Source: Candidatus Multivoradales bacterium
GTDB taxonomy: Bacteria > Acidobacteriota > Thermoanaerobaculia > Multivoradales > Multivoraceae
Reading direction: 5' to 3'
DNA length: 64,000 bases
Assembly (NCBI GenBank): GCA_965223325.1
Contig: CBDCWI010000002.1
Location: forward strand, 1,152,001-1,216,000
The notes beneath the pieces are model-generated. The model did no database searches. It saw nothing but the letters and a program-made list of their open reading frames with translations, and had not been told where the DNA came from. The position numbers were made by a program, and so were the translations under genes. This document shows, in pieces, positions 1,880-41,369 of the stretch (the stretch's first letter is position 1; each line of letters starts with the position of its first letter).

Positions 1880-3487
1880 GTGCGACTAAGCTCGACCGGA
1901 AGCGCTTCAGAACGGGTACGGACGCTACAACGGATGGGTTTACCGAACAGAGACCAGAACTCTGGCAGCGCCAGGGAGCGCCGATCGGCGATCACGCTGG
2001 TGCTGGCGCTTCTTCTTCTCGCGGCCTGGATGGTCGCACCGCGGCTGTTCCAACACTGGAATCGAACGACGCCGGTCTCCTTCGAGTCCTTTCCGATCGA
2101 GGGTGACCTGACACCTGAGCGCAACTTCGCCTTTTCGCACGAGGGCATCGAGCTCAACGGCTGGTCGCCGCGTGCCGTCTCCGTAACGGCGGGAGGCAAA
2201 CCTCTCGAACGCACGTCGGCTCGGCGGGTGCGAAAAACGGGCGACGGAACTTTTCATATCGGCCAGGGCGGTCGCCTTCTCGTGGCTCCTCCCGGCAACC
2301 AGAACCCCACCGCGCTCGAGATCGAGGTCAGCCAGCCCCGCGACCTCCCACCTCGCTCCCTGGTGGGCGCGCTGTCGATCTTCGTCTTTCTGCATGTCGG
2401 CACGTTGGTGGCGCTGGCGCGCCAGCTGTGGACCAGGCCACTCCTGCGCGCGCTCCCGCCGGTGATCCTGGCGATGCTCAGCGGTCTGCTCACCTTGCAC
2501 GCGGCCAATGCACACCTACCGCCCTCACGGGCCGACTCGATCGGGGAGCGCCAACGACAGTTCGCCCAAGCGATAAAGAACGAGAGTCCGCCGCCCGATA
2601 CGGTCTTCCTCGGGTCGAGTGTGATCTACAGGCAACTCGATCCGGCGACTTTCGACGACGCTTTCGCTCACGCGAAGCGTCCCCGGCGCTCATTCAACCT
2701 GGGAGCCGCCGGGGCGAGAATGCCTGAGGTCCTGCACCTCGCAAGCTGGGCGCTAGAGCGCGGCGAGGGCCAGATCGACCTGCTGGTGGTCGAACCACGG
2801 GACAGGCCGTTCGATCCCCTGGGCACCCGCCGACTCGCCGCCCGCAGCGTCGCCTGGCACACCTCTCGCGCGCTCTGGATGGTCGCCCGCGGCCTCCACC
2901 AGGACGGAATCGGAGCCGAGGAGGCTGCTCTTCGCATGAGCGAGCACTTGCCCGCCTGGGGTAGGAACACGCTCGCGCTCGGCCGCGGGCTCGACGGTCT
3001 CGACGCGCTCTTCGCAGTCAAACCCCGCTGGATCAACCCGAGTCGACGCGGCTTTCTGCCGCTCGACCTGCAGCCGAACCTGGCCAGGCGCCACGCCACG
3101 TTTCTTGACCGACCCAAGACCTGGGAGAGAGCCGTCGAAGAGCTGCTCGCCAGCCACGGCACCGGCACGCCGACCAGTGCTTTCGAACTCGAGATGTTCC
3201 TTCAACTCGAACACCTGGCCGCGGAGCACGGTGCCGACGTCGTCTGGCTGATCGCCCCCCACATCACACGACGACCCAATATGGTCTACGCCCACGATCA
3301 AGGACACGTCGAGACCCTCTTGCGCTTCGACGACCCACAAGAACACTCTCGCTACTACGACCTCTCGGCCCGCTTCGACGCCGGACATCTCAACCAGCGC
3401 GCCGCCCTCCTTTGGAGCCGCGACGTTGCAGAGCGCATTCTCGCCCTTGAACGTGACTCCGAGCGAGTCAGCGAGCTCCAGCCGTGA
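1880..3487 (+). CDS. Membrane-anchored SGNH-like (AlgJ/DltD-like) acyltransferase partner
   Basis: TM segments; VFLGSS block I, SFNLG block and D-x-x-H-L-N (FDAGHLN) motif; stop overlaps the MBOAT start (GTGA). Confidence 0.7.
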   Translation: MRLSSTGSASERVRTLQRMGLPNRDQNSGSARERRSAITLVLALLLLAAWMVAPRLFQHWNRTTPVSFESFPIEGDLTPERNFAFSHEGIELNGWSPRAVSVTAGGKPLERTSARRVRKTGDGTFHIGQGGRLLVAPPGNQNPTALEIEVSQPRDLPPRSLVGALSIFVFLHVGTLVALARQLWTRPLLRALPPVILAMLSGLLTLHAANAHLPPSRADSIGERQRQFAQAIKNESPPPDTVFLGSSVIYRQLDPATFDDAFAHAKRPRRSFNLGAAGARMPEVLHLASWALERGEGQIDLLVVEPRDRPFDPLGTRRLAARSVAWHTSRALWMVARGLHQDGIGAEEAALRMSEHLPAWGRNTLALGRGLDGLDALFAVKPRWINPSRRGFLPLDLQPNLARRHATFLDRPKTWERAVEELLASHGTGTPTSAFELEMFLQLEHLAAEHGADVVWLIAPHITRRPNMVYAHDQGHVETLLRFDDPQEHSRYYDLSARFDAGHLNQRAALLWSRDVAERILALERDSERVSELQP

Positions 3488-4899
3488 TCTTCACCGAGTT
3501 TCGCTTCCTCGCCTTCTTCGGGCTCGTCCTCGCGGTCTACTGGTCACTCGAAGGCAATCGCCTGCGCAAGATCTGGCTGCTGGCGGCGAGCTATGCGTTC
3601 TACGCCGCCTGGGACTGGCGCTTTTTGTCGCTCATTCTCATCTCGACGCTGGTCGACTACGCGGTAGGCACGCGACTGGCGACAACCGACTCGGAGTCCC
3701 GCCGCCGCGCCCTCCTCCTCGCCAGCCTGGTCACCAACCTCGGGCTACTCGGCTTTTTCAAGTACTTCGGTTTCTTCGTCGACTCGGCGGTCGATCTGGG
3801 TTCATTTCTCGGGTTCTCGCTCAGCCGACCAACGCTCGAGATCGTGTTGCCGGTCGGCATCAGCTTCTACACCTTCCAGACGCTCAGCTACACCATTGAC
3901 GTCTATCGTCGCGGCCTCGAGGCGACGCGCAACCTGCTCGACCTGGCGCTGTTCGTCGCCTTCTTCCCGCAGCTGGTGGCGGGGCCGATCGTGCGCGCTT
4001 CGTACTTCCTGCCGCAGCTGCACGAGGAGCGCCGCTGGCAGAACGTCGCCGCGCGTTCTCACCTGGTCTTGTTCCTCATCGGCTTTGCCAAGAAGGCCTG
4101 CATCTCCGACAACATCTCGCCCTTCGTCGACAGCTACTTCGCCGCCCCGGAGGGCTGGAGCGCAGGGGCCGCGTGGCTAGCGGTGTTGCTCTACGCCATT
4201 CAGATCTACTGCGACTTCTCCGGTTACTCGGACATGGCGATCGCCACCGCTGGACTTCTGGGCTACGACCTGGGACCGAACTTTCGTTCCCCCTACGTCG
4301 CCCTCAACCCGCGGGACTTCTGGCAGCGTTGGCACATCAGCCTATCGACCTGGCTGCGCGACTACCTGTACATCCCACTGGGCGGCAACCGCGGCAGCAC
4401 GATCTTCACTTACCGCAACCTGATGCTCACCATGCTGCTCGGAGGGTTGTGGCACGGGGCCGCCTGGCACTTCGTCGTCTGGGGTTTCCTGCATGGCCTG
4501 GCACTCTGCCTGCACCGGCTGGTCCGTACTGACGGGAAAGAGCAGGGGGCCTCTCCTCTCAAACGCATTGCCTCGACCCTCGCCATGCAGTACTGGGTGT
4601 GCCTGGCGTGGATCTTCTTCCGAGCGGAGAGCTGGGGCGATGCGATGGTCACCGCAAAGGCCTGGTTGTTCTGGAGCAGCCCGGGCTCTCTGACTCTCGA
4701 TGCGCGCTGGTGGTGGTTCATCGCCGCCTTCGCGCTAGCCCACTGGGTGGGCGCTCGCTACGCCAGCACCGATGAACCCTTCCTTCCCGGCGCACGGCTC
4801 CCACAGCCCCTTTTTGCAGCCGCCTACGGCGTCGCCACCGCCATCGTCCTCCTCTTCGTTCAGGTCGACGTACAGCCCTTCATCTACTTCCAGTTCTAG
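3484..4899 (+). CDS. MBOAT family O-acyltransferase (AlgI/PatA/DltB-like)
   Basis: LPVGISFYTFQ, FFPQLVAGPIVR, IYCDFSGYSDMA, FWQRWHISLSTWLRDYLYIPLGG, GLWHGA and C-terminal FIYFQF. Confidence 0.95.
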   Translation: MIFTEFRFLAFFGLVLAVYWSLEGNRLRKIWLLAASYAFYAAWDWRFLSLILISTLVDYAVGTRLATTDSESRRRALLLASLVTNLGLLGFFKYFGFFVDSAVDLGSFLGFSLSRPTLEIVLPVGISFYTFQTLSYTIDVYRRGLEATRNLLDLALFVAFFPQLVAGPIVRASYFLPQLHEERRWQNVAARSHLVLFLIGFAKKACISDNISPFVDSYFAAPEGWSAGAAWLAVLLYAIQIYCDFSGYSDMAIATAGLLGYDLGPNFRSPYVALNPRDFWQRWHISLSTWLRDYLYIPLGGNRGSTIFTYRNLMLTMLLGGLWHGAAWHFVVWGFLHGLALCLHRLVRTDGKEQGASPLKRIASTLAMQYWVCLAWIFFRAESWGDAMVTAKAWLFWSSPGSLTLDARWWWFIAAFALAHWVGARYASTDEPFLPGARLPQPLFAAAYGVATAIVLLFVQVDVQPFIYFQF

Positions 4900-5893
4900 T
4901 GAGGTCCGTGGTTTTCGACCAATGCGCTGCGGACCTTGATTGGGTAGGCGGTGCTGTTGGAATTCCCGCCTCGACGTCTCGGCCTGTCGTGTACCACGGA
5001 CCTCACTAGAGTCACATCTGCGGCGCAAGCGCTCCAAAGCGCGAGCCGCCTTCACTGGCGCTCGCCTTGCAAAAGCTGCCACCGACTTCGGTCGCCTGGC
5101 GCGCGCCGCGGATTCCTGCCTCCGATGGAACCGACCTCGACGCTCACCACTCAACTGCCCCCCGTGGTTTTCGACCAATGCGCTGCGGGCCTTGATTGGG
5201 TAGGCGGTGCTGTTGGAATCCCCACCTCGCCGTCTCGGCCTGTCGTGTACCACGGACCTCACTAGAGTCACATCTGCGGCGCAAGCGCTCCAAAGCGCGA
5301 GCCGCCTTCACTGGCGCTCGCCTTGCAAAAGCTGCCACCGACTTCGGTCGCCTGGCGCGCGCCGCGGATTCCTGCCTCCGATGGAACCGACCTCGACGCT
5401 CACCACTCAACTGCCCCCCGTGGTTTTCGACCAATGCGCTGCGGACCTTGATTGGGTAGGCGGTGCTGTTGGAATCCCCACCTCGCCGTCTCGGCCTGTC
5501 GTGTACCACGGACCTCACTAGAGTCACATCTGCGGCGCAAGCGCTCCAAAGCGCGAGCCGCCTTCACTGGCGCTCGCCTTGCAAAAGCTGCCACCGACTT
5601 CGGTCGCCTGGCGCGCGCCGCGGATTCCTGCCTCCGATGGAACCGACCTCGACGCTCACCACTCAACTGCCCCCCGTGGTTTTCGACCAATGCGCTGCGG
5701 ACCTTGATTGGGTAGGCGGTGCTGTTGGAATTCCCGCCTCGACGTCTCGGCCTGTCGTGTACCACGGACCTCACTAGAGTCACATCTGCGGCGCAAGCGC
5801 TCCAAAGCGCGAGCCGCCTTCACTGGCGCTCGCCTTGCAAAAGCTGCCACCGACTTCGGTCGCCTGGCGCGCGCCGCGGATTCCTGCCTCCGA
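4895..5893. repeat. Tandem array of a 256-bp unit (~3.9 copies); first copy bounded by a perfect 18-bp inverted repeat with CTAG ends
   Basis: CCGTGGTTTTCGACC recurs at 4906, 5162, 5418 and 5674. TCTAGTGAGGTCCGTGGT (4895-4912) is the reverse complement of ACCACGGACCTCACTAGA (4993-5010). Units differ by only a few substitutions. Confidence 0.95.
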
Positions 5894-5937
5894 CTTAACA
5901 CGGAGGCTTCTCTTCCCCGGATCCCAGGACCCTCTTC

Positions 5938-6876
5938 ATGAAGCAGCCACCGAACCCTCTCTCCGTCGCCATCTCCGGCGCCAGCGGTCTGGTTGGCCGC
6001 GGACTCATTCCGCGGCTCGAAGCGGCCGGCCACCAAGTGCTCCGCCTCGAACGACGAGGTGAGCCCGGCGCCGACCCGGCCCGCGTCTTGTGGAGTCCGG
6101 AGACTGGCGTTCGTGAGCCCGAGAAACTCGAGGGCGTCGATGCCATCGTTCATCTCGCCGGCGAAAGCATCGCGGGCGGGCGCTGGACCCGGCGCAAGCG
6201 GCAGGAGATTCGCCGGAGCCGCATCGTTGGCACCCGCAAGCTGGTCGCCTCGCTCGCTACCCTCGAGCGACCGCCGGCTAGCTTCATGTGCGCGTCGGCG
6301 GTGGGCTACTACGGCAACACCGACGAGCGAGCCGACACGCCGGTCGATGAGCGTTCGCCCGCCGGCCGCGGGTTTCTCGCCGAGGTGTGCGTGGACTGGG
6401 AGAAGGAGGCGGAGTGTGCCCGGGACTTCGGCGCGCGGGTCGTTCGCCTTCGGTTTGGCGTCATTCTGTCGTCAACTGGTGGGGCGTTGGCCAAGATGCT
6501 GCCGGCACTTCGCAGCGGCCTCGGGGGACGGCTCGGCGGCGGGCGGCAGATCATGGCGTGGATCAGCCTGCGGGACTGCGTCAACGCCATCGAAACCCTG
6601 CTCTCTAGAGATGACCTCTCGGGAGCCTTCAACCTGACCGCGCCGCGGCCCGCCAGCAACCGCTGTTTCACCGCACGGTTGGGCGGTGCCCTGGGGCGCC
6701 CGACACCGCTCGCGGTTCCTGCCGCGCTCCTTTCTGCGACTTTCGGCGGCATGGCCCGCGAGACACTCCTGGCCTCGAACGACGTTCGGCCCACGCGCCT
6801 CCTGGAAGCGGGGTTTGAGTTCGAGCACAGCGAACTCGACAACGCCCTCTCAGAGCTCCTCGCTCAGACGGACTAG
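5938..6876 (+). CDS. TIGR01777-family NAD-dependent epimerase/oxidoreductase
   Basis: AISGASGLVG Rossmann motif; VHLAGESIAGGRW, ASAVGYYG, FLAEVCVDWE, LRFGVIL; C-terminal PTRLLEAGFEF. Confidence 0.92.
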   Translation: MKQPPNPLSVAISGASGLVGRGLIPRLEAAGHQVLRLERRGEPGADPARVLWSPETGVREPEKLEGVDAIVHLAGESIAGGRWTRRKRQEIRRSRIVGTRKLVASLATLERPPASFMCASAVGYYGNTDERADTPVDERSPAGRGFLAEVCVDWEKEAECARDFGARVVRLRFGVILSSTGGALAKMLPALRSGLGGRLGGGRQIMAWISLRDCVNAIETLLSRDDLSGAFNLTAPRPASNRCFTARLGGALGRPTPLAVPAALLSATFGGMARETLLASNDVRPTRLLEAGFEFEHSELDNALSELLAQTD

Positions 6877-9492: not shown

Positions 9493-9644
9493 CGACAGCC
9501 CGCTCTCGGACTTGCTACGTGGTGCCGCTCAGTCCGCGGTCTCGACCGGCTCATCGCCGGACGTTATCGCAACGCCTGGAGACACTCCGCAGCGCGTTCC
9601 GTCGAACGGATCCTATTACGACGAGTATTCCTGGAGGAATCCCC

Positions 9645-10601
9645 ATGCTTTCAAAGTCCAAGATCGAGATTCTCGTTCTGGCCCTGGTCGCTCTGCTGGT
9701 CGCTGTACCGGCAGCAGCGCAAGAAGACGAAGAGTTCCCGCCCAACGCTGAAGCCGGCAAGTGCTACGCCAAGTGCGTCATCCCGGCTCAGTACGAGACC
9801 TACACCGAGCAGGTTCTCAAGAAAGACGCCGCCAAGCGGCTCGAGGTCGTTCCGGCGACCTACGAGACCGTCACCGAGCAGGTCGTCACCCGCGAAGCGT
9901 CCTCACGCCTCGAGGTGGTCCCTGCCCAGTACGAGAACGTCACCGAGCAGGTGATGATCAAGCCTGCCAGCAGCCGGGTCGAGGTCGTTCCGGCGACCTA
10001 CGAGACGGTCACCGAAACCGTCACCGTGTCGCCTGCCAGCACCCGCTGGGAAAAGACCAGGGGCGACGCTTCCTGCCTGTCGGCCAACCCCGAAGATTGC
10101 CGCGTCTGGTGCCTGGTCACCGTTCCGGCAGTCACTCGTACGGTCAGCAAGCGGGTCCTCAAGACCCCGGCCACCACTCGTGAAATCGAGATCCCGGCCG
10201 AGTACAAGACGGTCACCCGTCGCGTCGTCAAGGTTCCGGCTTCGACCCGCACGGTCGAGATCCCGGCCGAGTACGGCACCATCACCAAGACGGTGCTCAA
10301 GAGCCCGGCAACCACTCGCGAGATCGAGATCCCGGCCGAGTACCAGACGGTCACCCGCACACGTCAGGTGTCGGCCGCTGGTTCGACCGAGTGGCGTGAG
10401 GTCCTCTGCGCTGCCGACATCACCCAGGCACGCATTCGTACCATCCAGCGCGCGCTCAAAGAACGCGGCTACGACCCGGGGCCGATCGACAACATCCTCG
10501 GCTCCCAGACCCGCGCCGCGCTCCTGCGCTTCCAGCGCGACAACAAGCTGCCGGAAGGCAGTCTTGACCTCGAAACTCTAAAGGCGCTCGGCGTCAACTG
10601 A
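9645..10601 (+). CDS. Secreted beta-repeat protein with C-terminal peptidoglycan-binding domain
   Basis: GGAGG RBS before ATG 9645; signal peptide; ~24-aa repeats (VPATYETVTEQV / IPAEYKTVTRRV); PG_binding_1-like IQRALKERGYDPGPIDNILGSQTRAALLRFQ. Confidence 0.88.
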   Translation: MLSKSKIEILVLALVALLVAVPAAAQEDEEFPPNAEAGKCYAKCVIPAQYETYTEQVLKKDAAKRLEVVPATYETVTEQVVTREASSRLEVVPAQYENVTEQVMIKPASSRVEVVPATYETVTETVTVSPASTRWEKTRGDASCLSANPEDCRVWCLVTVPAVTRTVSKRVLKTPATTREIEIPAEYKTVTRRVVKVPASTRTVEIPAEYGTITKTVLKSPATTREIEIPAEYQTVTRTRQVSAAGSTEWREVLCAADITQARIRTIQRALKERGYDPGPIDNILGSQTRAALLRFQRDNKLPEGSLDLETLKALGVN

Positions 10602-15916: not shown

Positions 15917-16488
15917 GCACCAGTGGCCGCGAAGACACTGCGCCAGTCGAAGACACTGCGCCAGTCGAAGACACCATGCACCACGAAGACACCGTGCACG
16001 ATGAAGACTCGGTGCTGCGCGCTGGGCAGCTCTCCGCCGGCTCACTCGAGGAGCTGTTCTCGGGCTACGGACTCCTGGTGCGCTGGGTAGCACCCGATGA
16101 GGACATCCCGGGCAGCTACTGGGGCGCTCCCGAGGCCGGCCTGCTCGGCAACGTCCTGTGGGTGCGCGCCGACACGCCGGTGCACTCCGCACTCCACGAA
16201 GGCTGCCACTGGATCTGCATGGATGAGCAAAGGCGACGCCATCTCGACACCGATGCCGGTGGAACGGAAATCGAGGAGTCCGGCGTCTGCTATCTGCAGA
16301 TCTTGCTTGCCGACTCTCTCGACGGCGTCGGCAGCGCGCGCCTGCAGGCCGATATGGACGCCTGGGGCTACAGTTTCCGGCTTGGCAGCACCCGCCGTTG
16401 GTTCCTGGAAGATGCCGAAGATGCGCGCCTTTGGCTCCATTTACGCGACCTCCTGCCTGGTGCACCACTTGTTGACGAAGATTCGTAG
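15913..16488 (+). CDS. Conserved hypothetical protein with HExxH motif
   Basis: IPGSYWGAPEAGL, VHSALHEGCHWICM, DMDAWGYSFRLGS; TTG 15913 overlaps the upstream TGA; start uncertain. Confidence 0.75.
   Translation: MSTSGREDTAPVEDTAPVEDTMHHEDTVHDEDSVLRAGQLSAGSLEELFSGYGLLVRWVAPDEDIPGSYWGAPEAGLLGNVLWVRADTPVHSALHEGCHWICMDEQRRRHLDTDAGGTEIEESGVCYLQILLADSLDGVGSARLQADMDAWGYSFRLGSTRRWFLEDAEDARLWLHLRDLLPGAPLVDEDS
15931..16014 (+). repeat. 18-bp in-frame tandem repeat, 5 degenerating units
   Basis: GAAGAC starts at 15931, 15949, 15967, 15985 and 16003; the first two units are identical (GAAGACACTGCGCCAGTC). Confidence 0.85.
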
Positions 16489-38668: not shown

Positions 38669-39550
38669 ATGAATCTCCGCCTCAAGAACCATCTCGCCCG
38701 CGCCGCTGTGGCGCTCCTGGTCGCAGCCAGCCTCCCCGCCCTCGCTCTCGCCCACGAAGAAGCAGAGGAGAGGGAGTTCGGTTGGTTCGATACCGGCGAG
38801 CTCGCCTTCGTCCAGACCGACGGCAACTCCGAGGCCAGCAGCCTTTCGCTGCGCAACAACCTGAGCCGCGTCTGGGAAGACGCCACCTTCACACTCAACC
38901 TCGGTGCTCTGCGCGCCGAGTCGACTGACATCCGACGCTTCGCCGTCGGAACTCCCGACGCCTTCGCCATCCGCGAGGAGAAGCGCTCCGACCTGACCGC
39001 CGAGAACTACTTCATCCGCGGACGCTACGACCGGCAGATCACCGACTCGCTCTTCTGGTACGCCGGCGCCGGTTGGGAGAAGAACGAGTTCGCAGGCTTC
39101 GACAGCCGAACCGTGCTCACAGCCGGTGTCGGCAACATCTGGTTCGAAGAAGACGCCGCGCGGTGGCGCACCTGGTACGGCGCCACCTGGACCTCCCAGG
39201 ACGACATCGTCCCCAACCCCGAGATCGACGACAGCTTCATTGGCCTCCAGTTCGGCTCCGACTACGCCCGCCAGCTCGGCGCCAACTCGCTCTACGAGAG
39301 CCTGCTCGTCGTCGACCTCAACATCGACGAAACCGAAGACTGGCGTGCCGACTTCGTCAACTCCATCACCACCAGCATGACCAACCACCTCGCCCTCAAA
39401 GTCAGCCTGCAGATTCTGTACGACAACCTGCCGGCCCTCGAAGCCGTCGAGCTCATCGACATCACCGGCGCCTCGACCGGCACCGAAGTCTTCGGTTCGC
39501 TGGACGAGATGGACACCCTCCTGACCGCCTCGCTGGTCGTTAGTTTCTAG
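38669..39550 (+). CDS. DUF481 outer-membrane beta-barrel protein
   Basis: Signal peptide; TDGNSE motif, TAENY, amphipathic strands, terminal Phe (LVVSF). Confidence 0.85.
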   Translation: MNLRLKNHLARAAVALLVAASLPALALAHEEAEEREFGWFDTGELAFVQTDGNSEASSLSLRNNLSRVWEDATFTLNLGALRAESTDIRRFAVGTPDAFAIREEKRSDLTAENYFIRGRYDRQITDSLFWYAGAGWEKNEFAGFDSRTVLTAGVGNIWFEEDAARWRTWYGATWTSQDDIVPNPEIDDSFIGLQFGSDYARQLGANSLYESLLVVDLNIDETEDWRADFVNSITTSMTNHLALKVSLQILYDNLPALEAVELIDITGASTGTEVFGSLDEMDTLLTASLVVSF

Positions 39551-39552
39551 GG

Positions 39553-39951
39553 GTCTAGCGTTCCCGTGGTTTGCGGCCTTTGGGACGCGCCCGTGTTGGT
39601 GTGAGGTGGTGTTGATGGAGAGACGACCCAGCGATCGAGGTTCGTCGTTACCACGGGAACGCTAGACGTCACATCGGCCGCGCAAGCGGTCCAACGCGCG
39701 GGCCGCCGCCGCAGGCGAACGCCCTGTACCTGCGATCGGCACACTGCAAGGGGCCGGCGCGCGCGGCGGATTCTGGGCTCCGATCGAACGACGGCTCCGA
39801 AGCCAGCGATGCGAAGACCGCCGCGCAGGAGGAGGAGCTGCCCGAATGGCACACGACCGTTGGGGACGCGCCCGTGTTGGTGAGAGGTGGTGTTGATGGA
39901 GAGACGATCCAGCGATCGAGGCTCGTCGTTACCACGGGAACGCTAGACGTC
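39553..39951. repeat. Diverged relative of the 4.9-kb repeat: IR-bounded module + structured module + partial second copy (period ~281 bp)
   Basis: GTCTAGCGTTCCCGTGGT (39553-39570) / ACCACGGGAACGCTAGAC (39650-39667) perfect IR; ~90 bp repeated at 39863-39951; GTCACATC...GCGCAAGCG.TCCAA.GCGCG.GCCGCC...GGCGCGCGC.GCGGATTC shared with 5011-5115. Confidence 0.9.
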
Positions 39952-40055: not shown

Positions 40056-41369
40056 ATGAAAACCATCCTCCTCGTCGACTTTGACCGCGAGCTCCTGGAG
40101 TCGCAGGCGCGGGCCTTCCGCGCCCACCGCACTGCCTGGGAGCTCCTGCTTGCCGAGAATGGCCACCAAGCGGTCCAGGTTCTCGAGAACCGCGCGATCG
40201 ACCTCCTCTTCACGGCCCTCGAGATGCCGGTCATGGACGGTTTCGAGCTCATGAGTCACGTCCTGCGCCTGCAGCCTGATGTCCCCGTCGTCATGTTCGC
40301 ACCCGCCGAGAGCGGCCTGGCGCCCGAAACGCTCGACATCCCCGGCACCTGTGACGTGCTCGTCAAACCGCTCTCGACCGACGGTGCGTTCAACTATGCA
40401 CGCACACACTTCGCCCGCGGACTTCGCGGCCACCTGAGCGGCATCAGCCTCTCCGGTGCCCTTCAGCTTCTCCACCTCGAGCAGCGCAGCTGCACGGTCA
40501 CGGTTCGCAAGAAGGGTCAGGTCGGCACCTTCGAACTGCAAGATGGAGTCCTCACGCACGCTTCCGTCGGAGGTCTCAAAGGCGAGGAAGCTGCGATCCA
40601 GATCCTCACCTGGCGCCACCCCGACCTCGAAGTCGTGGGACTCGCCACCAGCCCGTTTCACACCGTCAGTCAGCCGCTCGAAGGTCTGTTGATGGAAGCC
40701 GCGCGCCAGCACGACGAGTCGCGTCGTGACCTGCCCGACCTCTCCAGCCGGTGGCTGGCGAAAACCGAAGGCTCGAGCTACATCCCGCCGTTCGAACTCC
40801 GGCCGAAGCAAAGCCGCACCGTGCGCAGCCTGCTCCAGCGCGTCATGATGATCGAGGGCACCCTCGGCGTCGGCCTGATGGACACCCGCTCGGCCTCCTG
40901 CGTCATGAGCGAGAGCGTCCGACTGAAGGAGTCTTTCGACGAGCAGGCGGCCCAGACCGTCATGCTGGTGCGCGATCGTCGCTACGGGCTCGGAGCCGAC
41001 TCGGGCGATCCGAGTCTCGATCGAATGGTCGTGGAGCTGCACCGCCACATCGAGGTGTTTCAAAGCCTGGAGGGCGTTCCGCTCGGCCTCTACCTCCTGG
41101 GACGCCGGCACCTGACCGTGCCATCAGAGGCGATCGAAACCATCGAGCGCATCGCCGCCAAGATCAGCGACGTGCTGGTCGACCCCGATCCCGCCCAAAG
41201 CAACCTGCCGCGGCTGATCAAGACCGCACCGGCCAACTCAGACAAGAGCCGTGAGCGACCAACCGACTCGACGACGAGAAAGCGCACCGACCCTCCCGCC
41301 GGAGAGAACGCTTCAGTCGTTGACGAGGACGACCCGGTTCCGCCCCTGACGGCTCGCAACCGTCAGTGA
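40056..41369 (+). CDS. Atypical receiver + DUF4388 (PATAN-like) protein with C-terminal roadblock-like region
   Basis: ILLVD...LEMPVMDGFEL; GHLSGISLSGALQLLHLEQRSCTV...GEEAAIQILTW. Confidence 0.85.
   Translation: MKTILLVDFDRELLESQARAFRAHRTAWELLLAENGHQAVQVLENRAIDLLFTALEMPVMDGFELMSHVLRLQPDVPVVMFAPAESGLAPETLDIPGTCDVLVKPLSTDGAFNYARTHFARGLRGHLSGISLSGALQLLHLEQRSCTVTVRKKGQVGTFELQDGVLTHASVGGLKGEEAAIQILTWRHPDLEVVGLATSPFHTVSQPLEGLLMEAARQHDESRRDLPDLSSRWLAKTEGSSYIPPFELRPKQSRTVRSLLQRVMMIEGTLGVGLMDTRSASCVMSESVRLKESFDEQAAQTVMLVRDRRYGLGADSGDPSLDRMVVELHRHIEVFQSLEGVPLGLYLLGRRHLTVPSEAIETIERIAAKISDVLVDPDPAQSNLPRLIKTAPANSDKSRERPTDSTTRKRTDPPAGENASVVDEDDPVPPLTARNRQ

Follow-up and report, generated by a model that had tools for sequence, protein, structure and literature searches.

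A high-copy modular repeat anchored at stop codons in a Candidatus Multivoradales genome is probably a REP/BIME-like mosaic element

The BIMEs of Escherichia coli combine palindromic units with conserved non-palindromic motifs. GTAG-tagged REPs, in the account of Di Nocera et al. (2013, PMC3733652), are 20 to 40 bp long, carry an unpaired tag and are located for the most part downstream of ORFs, the neighbouring ORF often taking its TAG stop codon from them; clustered copies are repeated in tandem along with the DNA that flanks them. The same account places GTAG REPs in the Planctomycetes-Verrucomicrobia group too and relates that some REP/BIME sequences have been proposed as sites for a nucleoid protein, gyrase or a recombinase (PMC3733652). 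Nunvar et al. (2010, PMC2817692) describe the REP head as GT(A/G)G, the RAYT gene as flanked by two inverted REPs, and ISs as using REPs as targets. Here, we analyze a 119-nt sequence, module B, which we judge with a probability of roughly 0.6 to be the core of a modular, REP/BIME-like mosaic repeat that is present in many copies in the genome studied and has so far been seen in no other. By analogy, GTAG-tagged REPs and BIME-type mosaic repeats appear to be its closest kind. As far as those accounts describe REPs, the likeness extends to high copy number, an extragenic position mainly just downstream of ORFs where TAG can be the stop, GC-rich stems kept by complementary changes, tandem clusters and use as a target by mobile elements. 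The differences are equally specific: REPs measure 20 to 40 bp in the published description, whereas the hairpin module found here (module A) is ≈118 nt and module B 119 nt; the tag of REPs is an unpaired GT(A/G)G, whereas here it is paired and mostly CTAG; the companion 119-nt module has a closing stem of its own, and units occur only head to tail; finally, the RAYT gene is described as flanked by inverted REPs, whereas no RAYT flanked by the repeat was found here.

The window is a 64,000-nt stretch of Candidatus Multivoradales bacterium (GCA_965223325.1, contig CBDCWI010000002.1, positions 1,152,001 to 1,216,000 of the forward strand), and all features located in it below lie on the + strand. 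An earlier sequence-only reading had drawn attention to two loci in it, and its letters and coordinates at both proved correct when the sequence was read again. At locus 1, a gene of the MBOAT family (3484–4899 in the ORF list; Pfam MBOAT, 103.8 bits) ends in a TAG (4897–4899) that lies inside the 5′ arm of the first module A hairpin (4894–5011), which was delimited from the sequence, a stem scan and an RNA fold. This hairpin closes an 82-nt interior with an 18-bp stem (4894–4911 with 4994–5011) containing the MBOAT stop codon and last coding bases, and its RNA fold reaches −60.9 kcal/mol (z = −6.23). The first copy of module B follows as a conserved core of 119 nt (5012–5130; nhmmer and covariance-model matches, 116.2 bits), with a closing stem P1 (5016–5026 paired with 5103–5113), an inner hairpin in the MFE fold that adds five pairs and one bulge to CGCC-N6-GGCG (5041–5065), and a CGAC-UUCG-GUCG hairpin, read from the sequence, that is particular to a few copies (5083–5094). 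Tandem Repeats Finder delimits an array of 3.9 units of 256 nt (4906–5893; 98% matches), in which each unit runs from module A, minus the outer 5′ arm, through B to a 36-nt tail; B starts at 5012, 5268, 5524 and 5780, the fourth copy being incomplete. A weakly indicated terminator-like hairpin with a T-rich run spans the array end (5886–5907; one site versus a shuffle mean of 1.1), and an epimerase/DUF1731 gene lies downstream (5938–6876; ORF list and domain match). Locus 2 is found behind a DUF481 gene (38669–39550; stop TAG at 39548–39550). Its module A (39553–39667; sequence and stem scan) starts 3 nt past the stop codon, has a 17-bp stem (39553–39569 with 39651–39667) and folds with z = −4.67; one copy of module B follows (39669–39788; nhmmer and covariance model, 89.1 bits), and the repeat ends, on reading the sequence, in a second, partial module A that comprises the interior and 3′ arm only (39860–39949).

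These two loci belong to a large family. A single-sequence nhmmer search of the genome with module B gave 95 matches and, when iterated, 170 matches, spread over 68 loci; the covariance model, for which 38 arrays were used, likewise gave 170 matches across these loci, a few of them duplicates where loci overlap. The family thus comprises 170 copies of B at 68 loci, distributed over two contigs (21 and 47 loci) and over both strands (32 on + and 36 on −), with one B copy at 27 loci and tandem arrays of two to seven copies at the other 41. Array periods range from 62 to 377 nt (median 243.5), and all units run head to tail, never in alternating orientation. Within arrays, units share a median of 99.0% identity (181 pairs), compared with 66% between arrays (1911 pairs). 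The arrays differ from CRISPR in that entire units of ≈130 to 360 nt are repeated, at a median identity of 99% and without unique spacers. The type III antitoxin ToxI and the tandem sRNA NsiR1 are transcribed as head-to-tail repeats and processed into units, and such arrays occupy one locus with a partner gene or carry a promoter and a terminator in each unit. The repeat studied here shares the head-to-tail order but is found at 68 loci behind unrelated genes, and a promoter scan detected no sigma-70-like promoter in its units. An array that encodes a repetitive peptide or small proteins can be almost entirely discounted: mechanically called ORFs of 87 to 127 aa do cross the units on both strands, but the window period of 256 is no multiple of 3, the tails and module A interiors differ among units in both length and sequence, and 35 of 102 periods genome-wide are divisible by 3, a chance-level proportion, so that nothing suggests a repeated peptide.

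Module B is nearly always preceded by module A, and at 48 loci the first B follows a hairpin with a stem of at least 14 bp. These stems usually comprise 16 to 20 bp around an interior of ≈80 nt (61–62 nt at three loci and 5 nt at two), which gives module A a length of ≈113 to 141 nt at most loci, with two minimal versions of 41 to 49 nt. We scored a locus as anchored when the 5′ arm started with a stop codon that closed an ORF of 100 codons or more at a GC3 no lower than 0.70; by this measure, the arm starts at the stop of a gene in the same orientation at 41 of the 48 loci. Three of the seven misses are near ones, two with a stop a few nucleotides upstream (window locus 2 among them) and one with an ORF of 97 codons. 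The anchoring stops are TAG at 34 loci, TGA at five and TAA at two, compared with a TAG share of 44% among the stops of 2921 crude ORFs of the genome. At the 34 TAG loci the tag reads CTAG (21), GTAG (11) or TTAG (2) and is Watson–Crick paired with the 3′ arm, and loci with TAA or TGA stops carry the matching TTA or TCA there. With regard to the terminal inverted repeats and target-site duplication that characterize a MITE, the flanks of module A are complementary (TAA/TTA, TGA/TCA) and not direct repeats. The last coding base is Watson–Crick paired at 38 of 41 loci and the preceding base at 24 of 41, with pairing further upstream at chance level. With the three outermost positions excluded, A stems are 97.6% Watson–Crick (689 Watson–Crick, 4 G-U, 8 A-C and 5 other pairs), and their middle 5 to 7 bp differ among loci despite near-perfect pairing, that is, in a compensatory manner.

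Copying of the 5′ arm from the target was considered and rejected: four loci behind different genes carry an identical 5′ arm, compared with ≈0.5 expected by chance on a base-composition estimate, which indicates that the arm travels with the element. In two related genomes (G007 and G003), the MBOAT orthologues end in the same last codons and TAG and have no element, so the MBOAT stop codon predates the element. The next downstream gene lies on the same strand at 27 loci and on the opposite strand at 26, with none found at 15, and this balance ties the repeat to the end of the upstream gene and not to operons. Contact with stop codons is also known from the MIRUs of mycobacteria, tandem repeats of 46 to 101 bp at tens of intergenic loci that are oriented with the flanking genes, touch their stop codons, lie inside operons and carry small ORFs overlapping the neighbouring genes. 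The present repeat is likewise tandem, gene-oriented and in contact with stop codons at tens of loci, but its units are ≈130 to 360 nt long and show no reading frame, and the gene that comes next is convergent about as often as it is co-oriented. The BOX elements of Streptococcus pneumoniae are modular intergenic repeats with modules of ≈45 to 60 nt, one of which is reiterated in tandem; they are predicted to form stable RNA folds and to be co-transcribed with neighbouring genes, and to our knowledge they are not anchored to stop codons. Modularity, tandem reiteration and foldability are common to both, whereas sequence relation is lacking and BOX modules are shorter.

In the sequence-only reading, module B was a multi-stem, plus-strand RNA with covariation and stable tetraloops, a candidate undescribed noncoding RNA or ribozyme co-transcribed as a 3′ UTR. 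The closing stem on which this rested is borne out: it has 11 pairs at locus 1 and 10 of 11 at locus 2, where the remaining opposition is G-G, and the exchange of G-C for C-G noted between the two window loci recurs across the family (G-C in 26, C-G in 11 and unpaired in one of 38 arrays, each represented by one full-length copy in a MAFFT alignment). A second closing-stem pair covaries as well (C-G in 34, G-C in three and U-A in one of 38), and covariation in P1 amounts to two to three pairs overall. The main swap requires 10 changes on the best tree, where its carriers fall into about four separate groups; this tree is poorly resolved and star-like, which makes the number of independent swap events uncertain. 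RNAalifold, one of the checks named in that reading, recovered from the 38 arrays the closing stem and a GCG/CGC extension and no other helix. Module B has a closing stem of 9 to 11 bp around ≈76 nt.

We then used a four-helix model (closing stem, extension, inner hairpin and last hairpin) for the covariance model and for realignment of all copies. Among 120 distinct copies, pairing falls from 95.7% in the closing-stem core and 87.5% in the extension to 79.7% at the base and 67.1% at the top of the inner hairpin and 60.4% in the last hairpin; with one copy for each of the 38 arrays, the closing stem is 89.1%, the inner hairpin 75.4% and the last hairpin 58.6% paired. The full structure is 79.3% paired versus 37 to 47% with slid partners in the 120 copies, and 80.4% versus 32 to 52% in the 38 arrays. 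The inner CGCC-N6-GGCG hairpin, which had been read as kept while its loop changes, is present at both window loci but only moderately kept in the family (≈75% paired), with few changes on both sides of the helix. The UUCG-capped last hairpin fares worse still, with at least three closing pairs in just 5 of 66 array representatives, and TTCG letters at the loop position in 25 of 66; ACU(U/G)CG is kept as a sequence, not as a closed tetraloop. The closing stem alone is robust, and with the UUCG hairpin not conserved the multi-stem description with stable tetraloops has to be given up. Two kinds of alternative pairing were rejected: a long helix between B positions 20–32 and 91–103 is thermodynamically competitive but fails at two covarying columns, and a scan for other helices (at least four pairs, at least 75% pairing) returned many short GC-rich options without covariation. 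Sequence conservation extends well beyond the stem. In the 38 arrays, 19 columns are invariant and 24 nearly so, many of them outside helices, and the conserved letters include ACU(U/G)CG and CAAGCGGUCCG. Such strong conservation of unpaired letters suggests specific recognition by some factor, and we count it against the REP/BIME reading.

Folding energies further separate the window copy from its relatives. The first B copy of the window has z = −3.32 (0 of 200 shuffles as good) and is the best folder among the 38 representatives; the copy at locus 2 has z = +0.45 (137 of 200 shuffles as good). Averaged over the representatives, z is −0.96 for the + strand but −0.06 for the − strand, and 30 of 38 are no better than z = −2. 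The preference for the + strand put forward in the sequence-only reading does persist, the + strand having the lower fold energy in 30 of 38 representatives. Taken with the strict co-orientation with the upstream gene, the covarying closing stem, the conserved unpaired columns and an abundance of G-U pairs (157 versus 3 A-C in the closing-stem extension and 193 versus 40 in the inner hairpin), this strand preference is consistent with module B being a functional RNA, either a source of sRNAs processed from 3′ UTRs, for instance by RNase III at the A stem, or a decoy for an RNA-binding protein, the latter a multi-site arrangement in which the protein recognizes the conserved unpaired motifs. 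We regard such a role as unlikely, if deserving of attention. The mean fold z is just −0.96, a single helix is robust, co-orientation is also expected if survival of the element requires lying behind a stop codon, 13 B copies are split by an intron (see below), and 190 other genomes contain nothing beyond one weak GC-rich match. A ribozyme or trans-acting RNA is not supported; no hammerhead, twister, pistol, hatchet, HDV-like or other ribozyme model matched, even at E up to 10. We favor the REP/BIME reading over an RNA gene on account of the 170 copies, the arrays, the lack of a convincing match in 190 genomes and the use of the repeat as an intron target.

Inverted-repeat covariation alone does not separate RNA from single-stranded DNA, and part of the evidence points toward DNA. 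In A stems, which are almost purely Watson–Crick, G-U is tolerated no better than A-C (4 versus 8); module B contains long invariant sequence blocks, and RNAalifold finds its closing stem equally well on the − strand. These features could be expected of a double-stranded or extruded DNA site for a nucleoid protein, gyrase or a recombinase, with strand orientation as a by-product, a possibility to which we give very little credence. T-G oppositions are conserved at two closing-stem positions (31 of 38 and 32 of 38), folding is biased toward the + strand, a purely DNA-level role predicts no tie to the stop codon, and a GC-skew test detects no bias relative to replication direction (36 versus 32 arrays, with genes likewise unbiased), the last a weak inference since origin placement is unsure. 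Over module B as a whole, G-U outnumbers A-C by 562 to 190, an excess partly built into the choice of structure, and the wobble counts of A stems and module B together do not settle which strand folds.

The idea of an undescribed element withstands the database searches. No Rfam family matches the window at gathering score, and at E up to 10 the region 4850–5950 gives only chance matches of 15 to 21 bits to a eukaryotic IRES model. Relative to the genome's own copies, which score 22.7 to 116.2 bits with the covariance model, a search of 40 relatives (best 89 candidates per genome) yielded one weak match of 27.9 bits in sequence of 80% GC, and a search of 150 genomes of the phylum (best 24 candidates per genome) yielded none. 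Pattern scans gave single hits, ascribed to chance, at 17 loci of public genome contigs (at most 12.9 bits) and at 19 loci of public metagenome contigs (at most 17.3 bits); plasmid and phage collections gave no match, and a genome of the same genus gave just chance BLAST hits (E of 0.15 or worse). Among the genomes searched, the family would thus so far appear confined to one, relative to which the others are distant: MBOAT orthologues in the nearest comparison genomes are 47 to 63% identical. A full-text literature search by the features of the repeat found no account of such an element.

The repeat is itself a target of a mobile element. Thirteen first B copies start at model position 15, and each is preceded by an identical sequence, which is the end of a 1.9-kb element present in 14 copies in the genome. 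This element, a match to Rfam group-II-D1D4-6 at 180.6 bits, carries the gene for a group II reverse transcriptase/maturase (TIGR04416, 342.3 bits); in 13 of the 14 copies it is inserted between B positions 14 and 15, with the intron sense strand opposite to B. RVT_1 occurs in this genome in the 14 intron copies only. None of 28 Y1_Tnp hits has an A-like hairpin (perfect stem of at least 11 bp) within 1.3 kb, and none has a B copy next to it, except for array 15 by adjacency. One Y1-like ORF is flanked by a different, 11-nt tandem repeat. An enzyme able to move the element was therefore not found among the Y1 transposase and reverse transcriptase families, which we also count against the REP/BIME reading.

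The layout of the arrays bears on how the repeat spreads. Internal units lack the outer 5′ arm and start within ≈15 nt of a CGTGGTT motif, and the left edge of an array is fixed, whereas the right edge falls at a variable phase, often just past B; simple tandem duplication does not explain this combination of a fixed start near CGTGGTT and a variable end phase. The array tree has the shape of a star, and good support is found for 1 of its 35 inner branches. Elements of the IS200/IS605 group and their miniature derivatives lack terminal inverted repeats and insert in a hairpin-dependent, strand-specific manner 3′ of a short target that pairs with an internal guide of 4 to 5 nt. At the foot of the A hairpin, the pairing that takes in the stop codon and last coding base is reminiscent of such a guide, but the stem here is continuous over 16 to 20 bp, and no transposase of this type adjoins or is flanked by the repeat. 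The A–B unit might be mobile without being autonomous, passing through an RNA or single-stranded intermediate, with B as the core that is recognized or that catalyzes, possibly as an RNA of a new kind able to cleave or insert itself, and with arrays arising from repeated insertion behind one and the same stop codon or from a multimeric template that is copied. The fixed left and variable right edges, stems that are nearly perfect though their sequences are unrelated among loci, the paired last coding base at 38 of 41 loci, the star-like tree, and B sequences that diverge strongly among loci while each array is young and uniform would all be accommodated by this explanation, which we nevertheless hold to be improbable: neither B nor A matches a known ribozyme or intron family, the search for a partner enzyme among the Y1 transposase and reverse transcriptase families was negative, and the 5′ arm shared by four loci speaks against its being a mere copy of the target. 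A more specific proposal, to which we attach a similarly small chance, is that the A–B unit is a new kind of non-autonomous element that homes to stop codons and that, whenever it inserts, would fit the foot of its hairpin to the stop codon and the final coding base. The core formed by module B, whether structured RNA or single-stranded DNA, would then be recognized for insertion or for the cutting of multimers, or would perform one of these steps itself, and arrays would record repeated homing behind a single stop codon or would derive from a multimeric or circular template that had been copied.

In the REP/BIME reading, which we prefer, the unit would consist of a long hairpin (A), module B and a variable tail placed directly behind a gene, with the stop codon, mostly TAG, and the last one or two coding bases paired in the foot of the A hairpin. 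The element would have spread as DNA to many gene ends while being kept foldable as a single strand, and local multiplication at most loci would have produced the head-to-tail arrays. We infer transcription of the element, an effect on the upstream mRNA and its way of moving. The placement in a 3′ UTR proposed in the sequence-only reading agrees with the position of the element directly 3′ of a co-oriented gene, where read-through would yield a 3′ UTR and probably does so; read-through most likely makes the element part of the 3′-terminal region of the upstream mRNA, where its group of highly stable hairpins could impede 3′ exonucleases or form a structure close to the site of termination, and the element would act otherwise than as a free-standing RNA gene.

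For scans of genomes, these findings hold the lesson that inverted-repeat covariation between two copies and one good fold do not make an RNA gene; of the 38 copies compared here, the window copy was by chance the one that folds best. If the REP/BIME reading is true, this genome contains a large and unusually elaborate relative of REPs and BIMEs, in which a stem of 16 to 20 bp locks up the stop codon and last coding base of dozens of unrelated genes, with the conserved module of 119 nt behind it and amplification into arrays. It would also offer an example of a group II intron that uses a repeat as a multi-copy home. Finally, the family would provide a natural system in which to ask how repeats arrive at gene ends, how arrays grow with a fixed left edge, and how a buried stop codon affects termination, mRNA decay and ribosome release.

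Module B, the conserved 119-nt core that lies directly 3' of the stop-codon-anchored hairpin module A, is the target of a 1.9-kb group II intron, 14 near-identical copies of which are found in the genome to which the window belongs. The intron matches Rfam RF02005 with 180.6 bits and encodes an RT/maturase assigned to TIGR04416 (342.3 bits); one copy occupies positions 231-2138 of the excerpted locus L129, corresponding to about 698830-700737 of contig C2, with 13 further places elsewhere in the genome. Thirteen of the 14 copies are inserted at a single fixed position of module B, all antisense to it, and the fourteenth lies at a site that has the letters CAAGCG in common. The same genome harbors 28 Y1_Tnp matches, several of them clustered, the best of which (45.2 bits) is a Y1-transposase-like ORF at L210:1390-2208, on contig C1 around 1306000. 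This ORF is flanked on either side by the same block of TTCCCGGGCGC-type 11-nt tandem repeats (L210:1309-1375 and 2221-2290).

Within the window, a hairpin that resembles a terminator and carries a T-rich tail (5886-5907) straddles the end of the first array of A-B units. The last B unit, which is truncated, supplies one half of this hairpin and unique DNA the other; this is one site, and not above the shuffle count. The product of the gene next after the second repeat locus (40056-41369) has a response-regulator receiver domain and, C-terminal to it, DUF4388. Separately, a diverged tandem repeat of 69 bp (66-69% matches) forms two arrays inside the ORF at 9519-10601 (9792-10015 and 10154-10357), where it is probably a repetitive protein domain. 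At 15930-16008, two tandem repeats with an 18-bp unit, each present in about 2.5 copies, lie side by side. Genome-wide, of 2921 long ORFs with high GC3 (a crude set), 44% end in TAG, 51% in TGA, and 5% in TAA; a lower TAG share would be expected in a bacterium of 64% G+C.

Finally, a sub-family found across the genome (e.g., C2:3962434, C2:4105436, and C2:2887030) carries an additional hairpin module, a C-run followed by a G-run, between A and a shortened B comprising model positions 10-98, and behind a small number of A hairpins stand yet other B-like modules. The A-B repeat family is thus a mosaic of modules.
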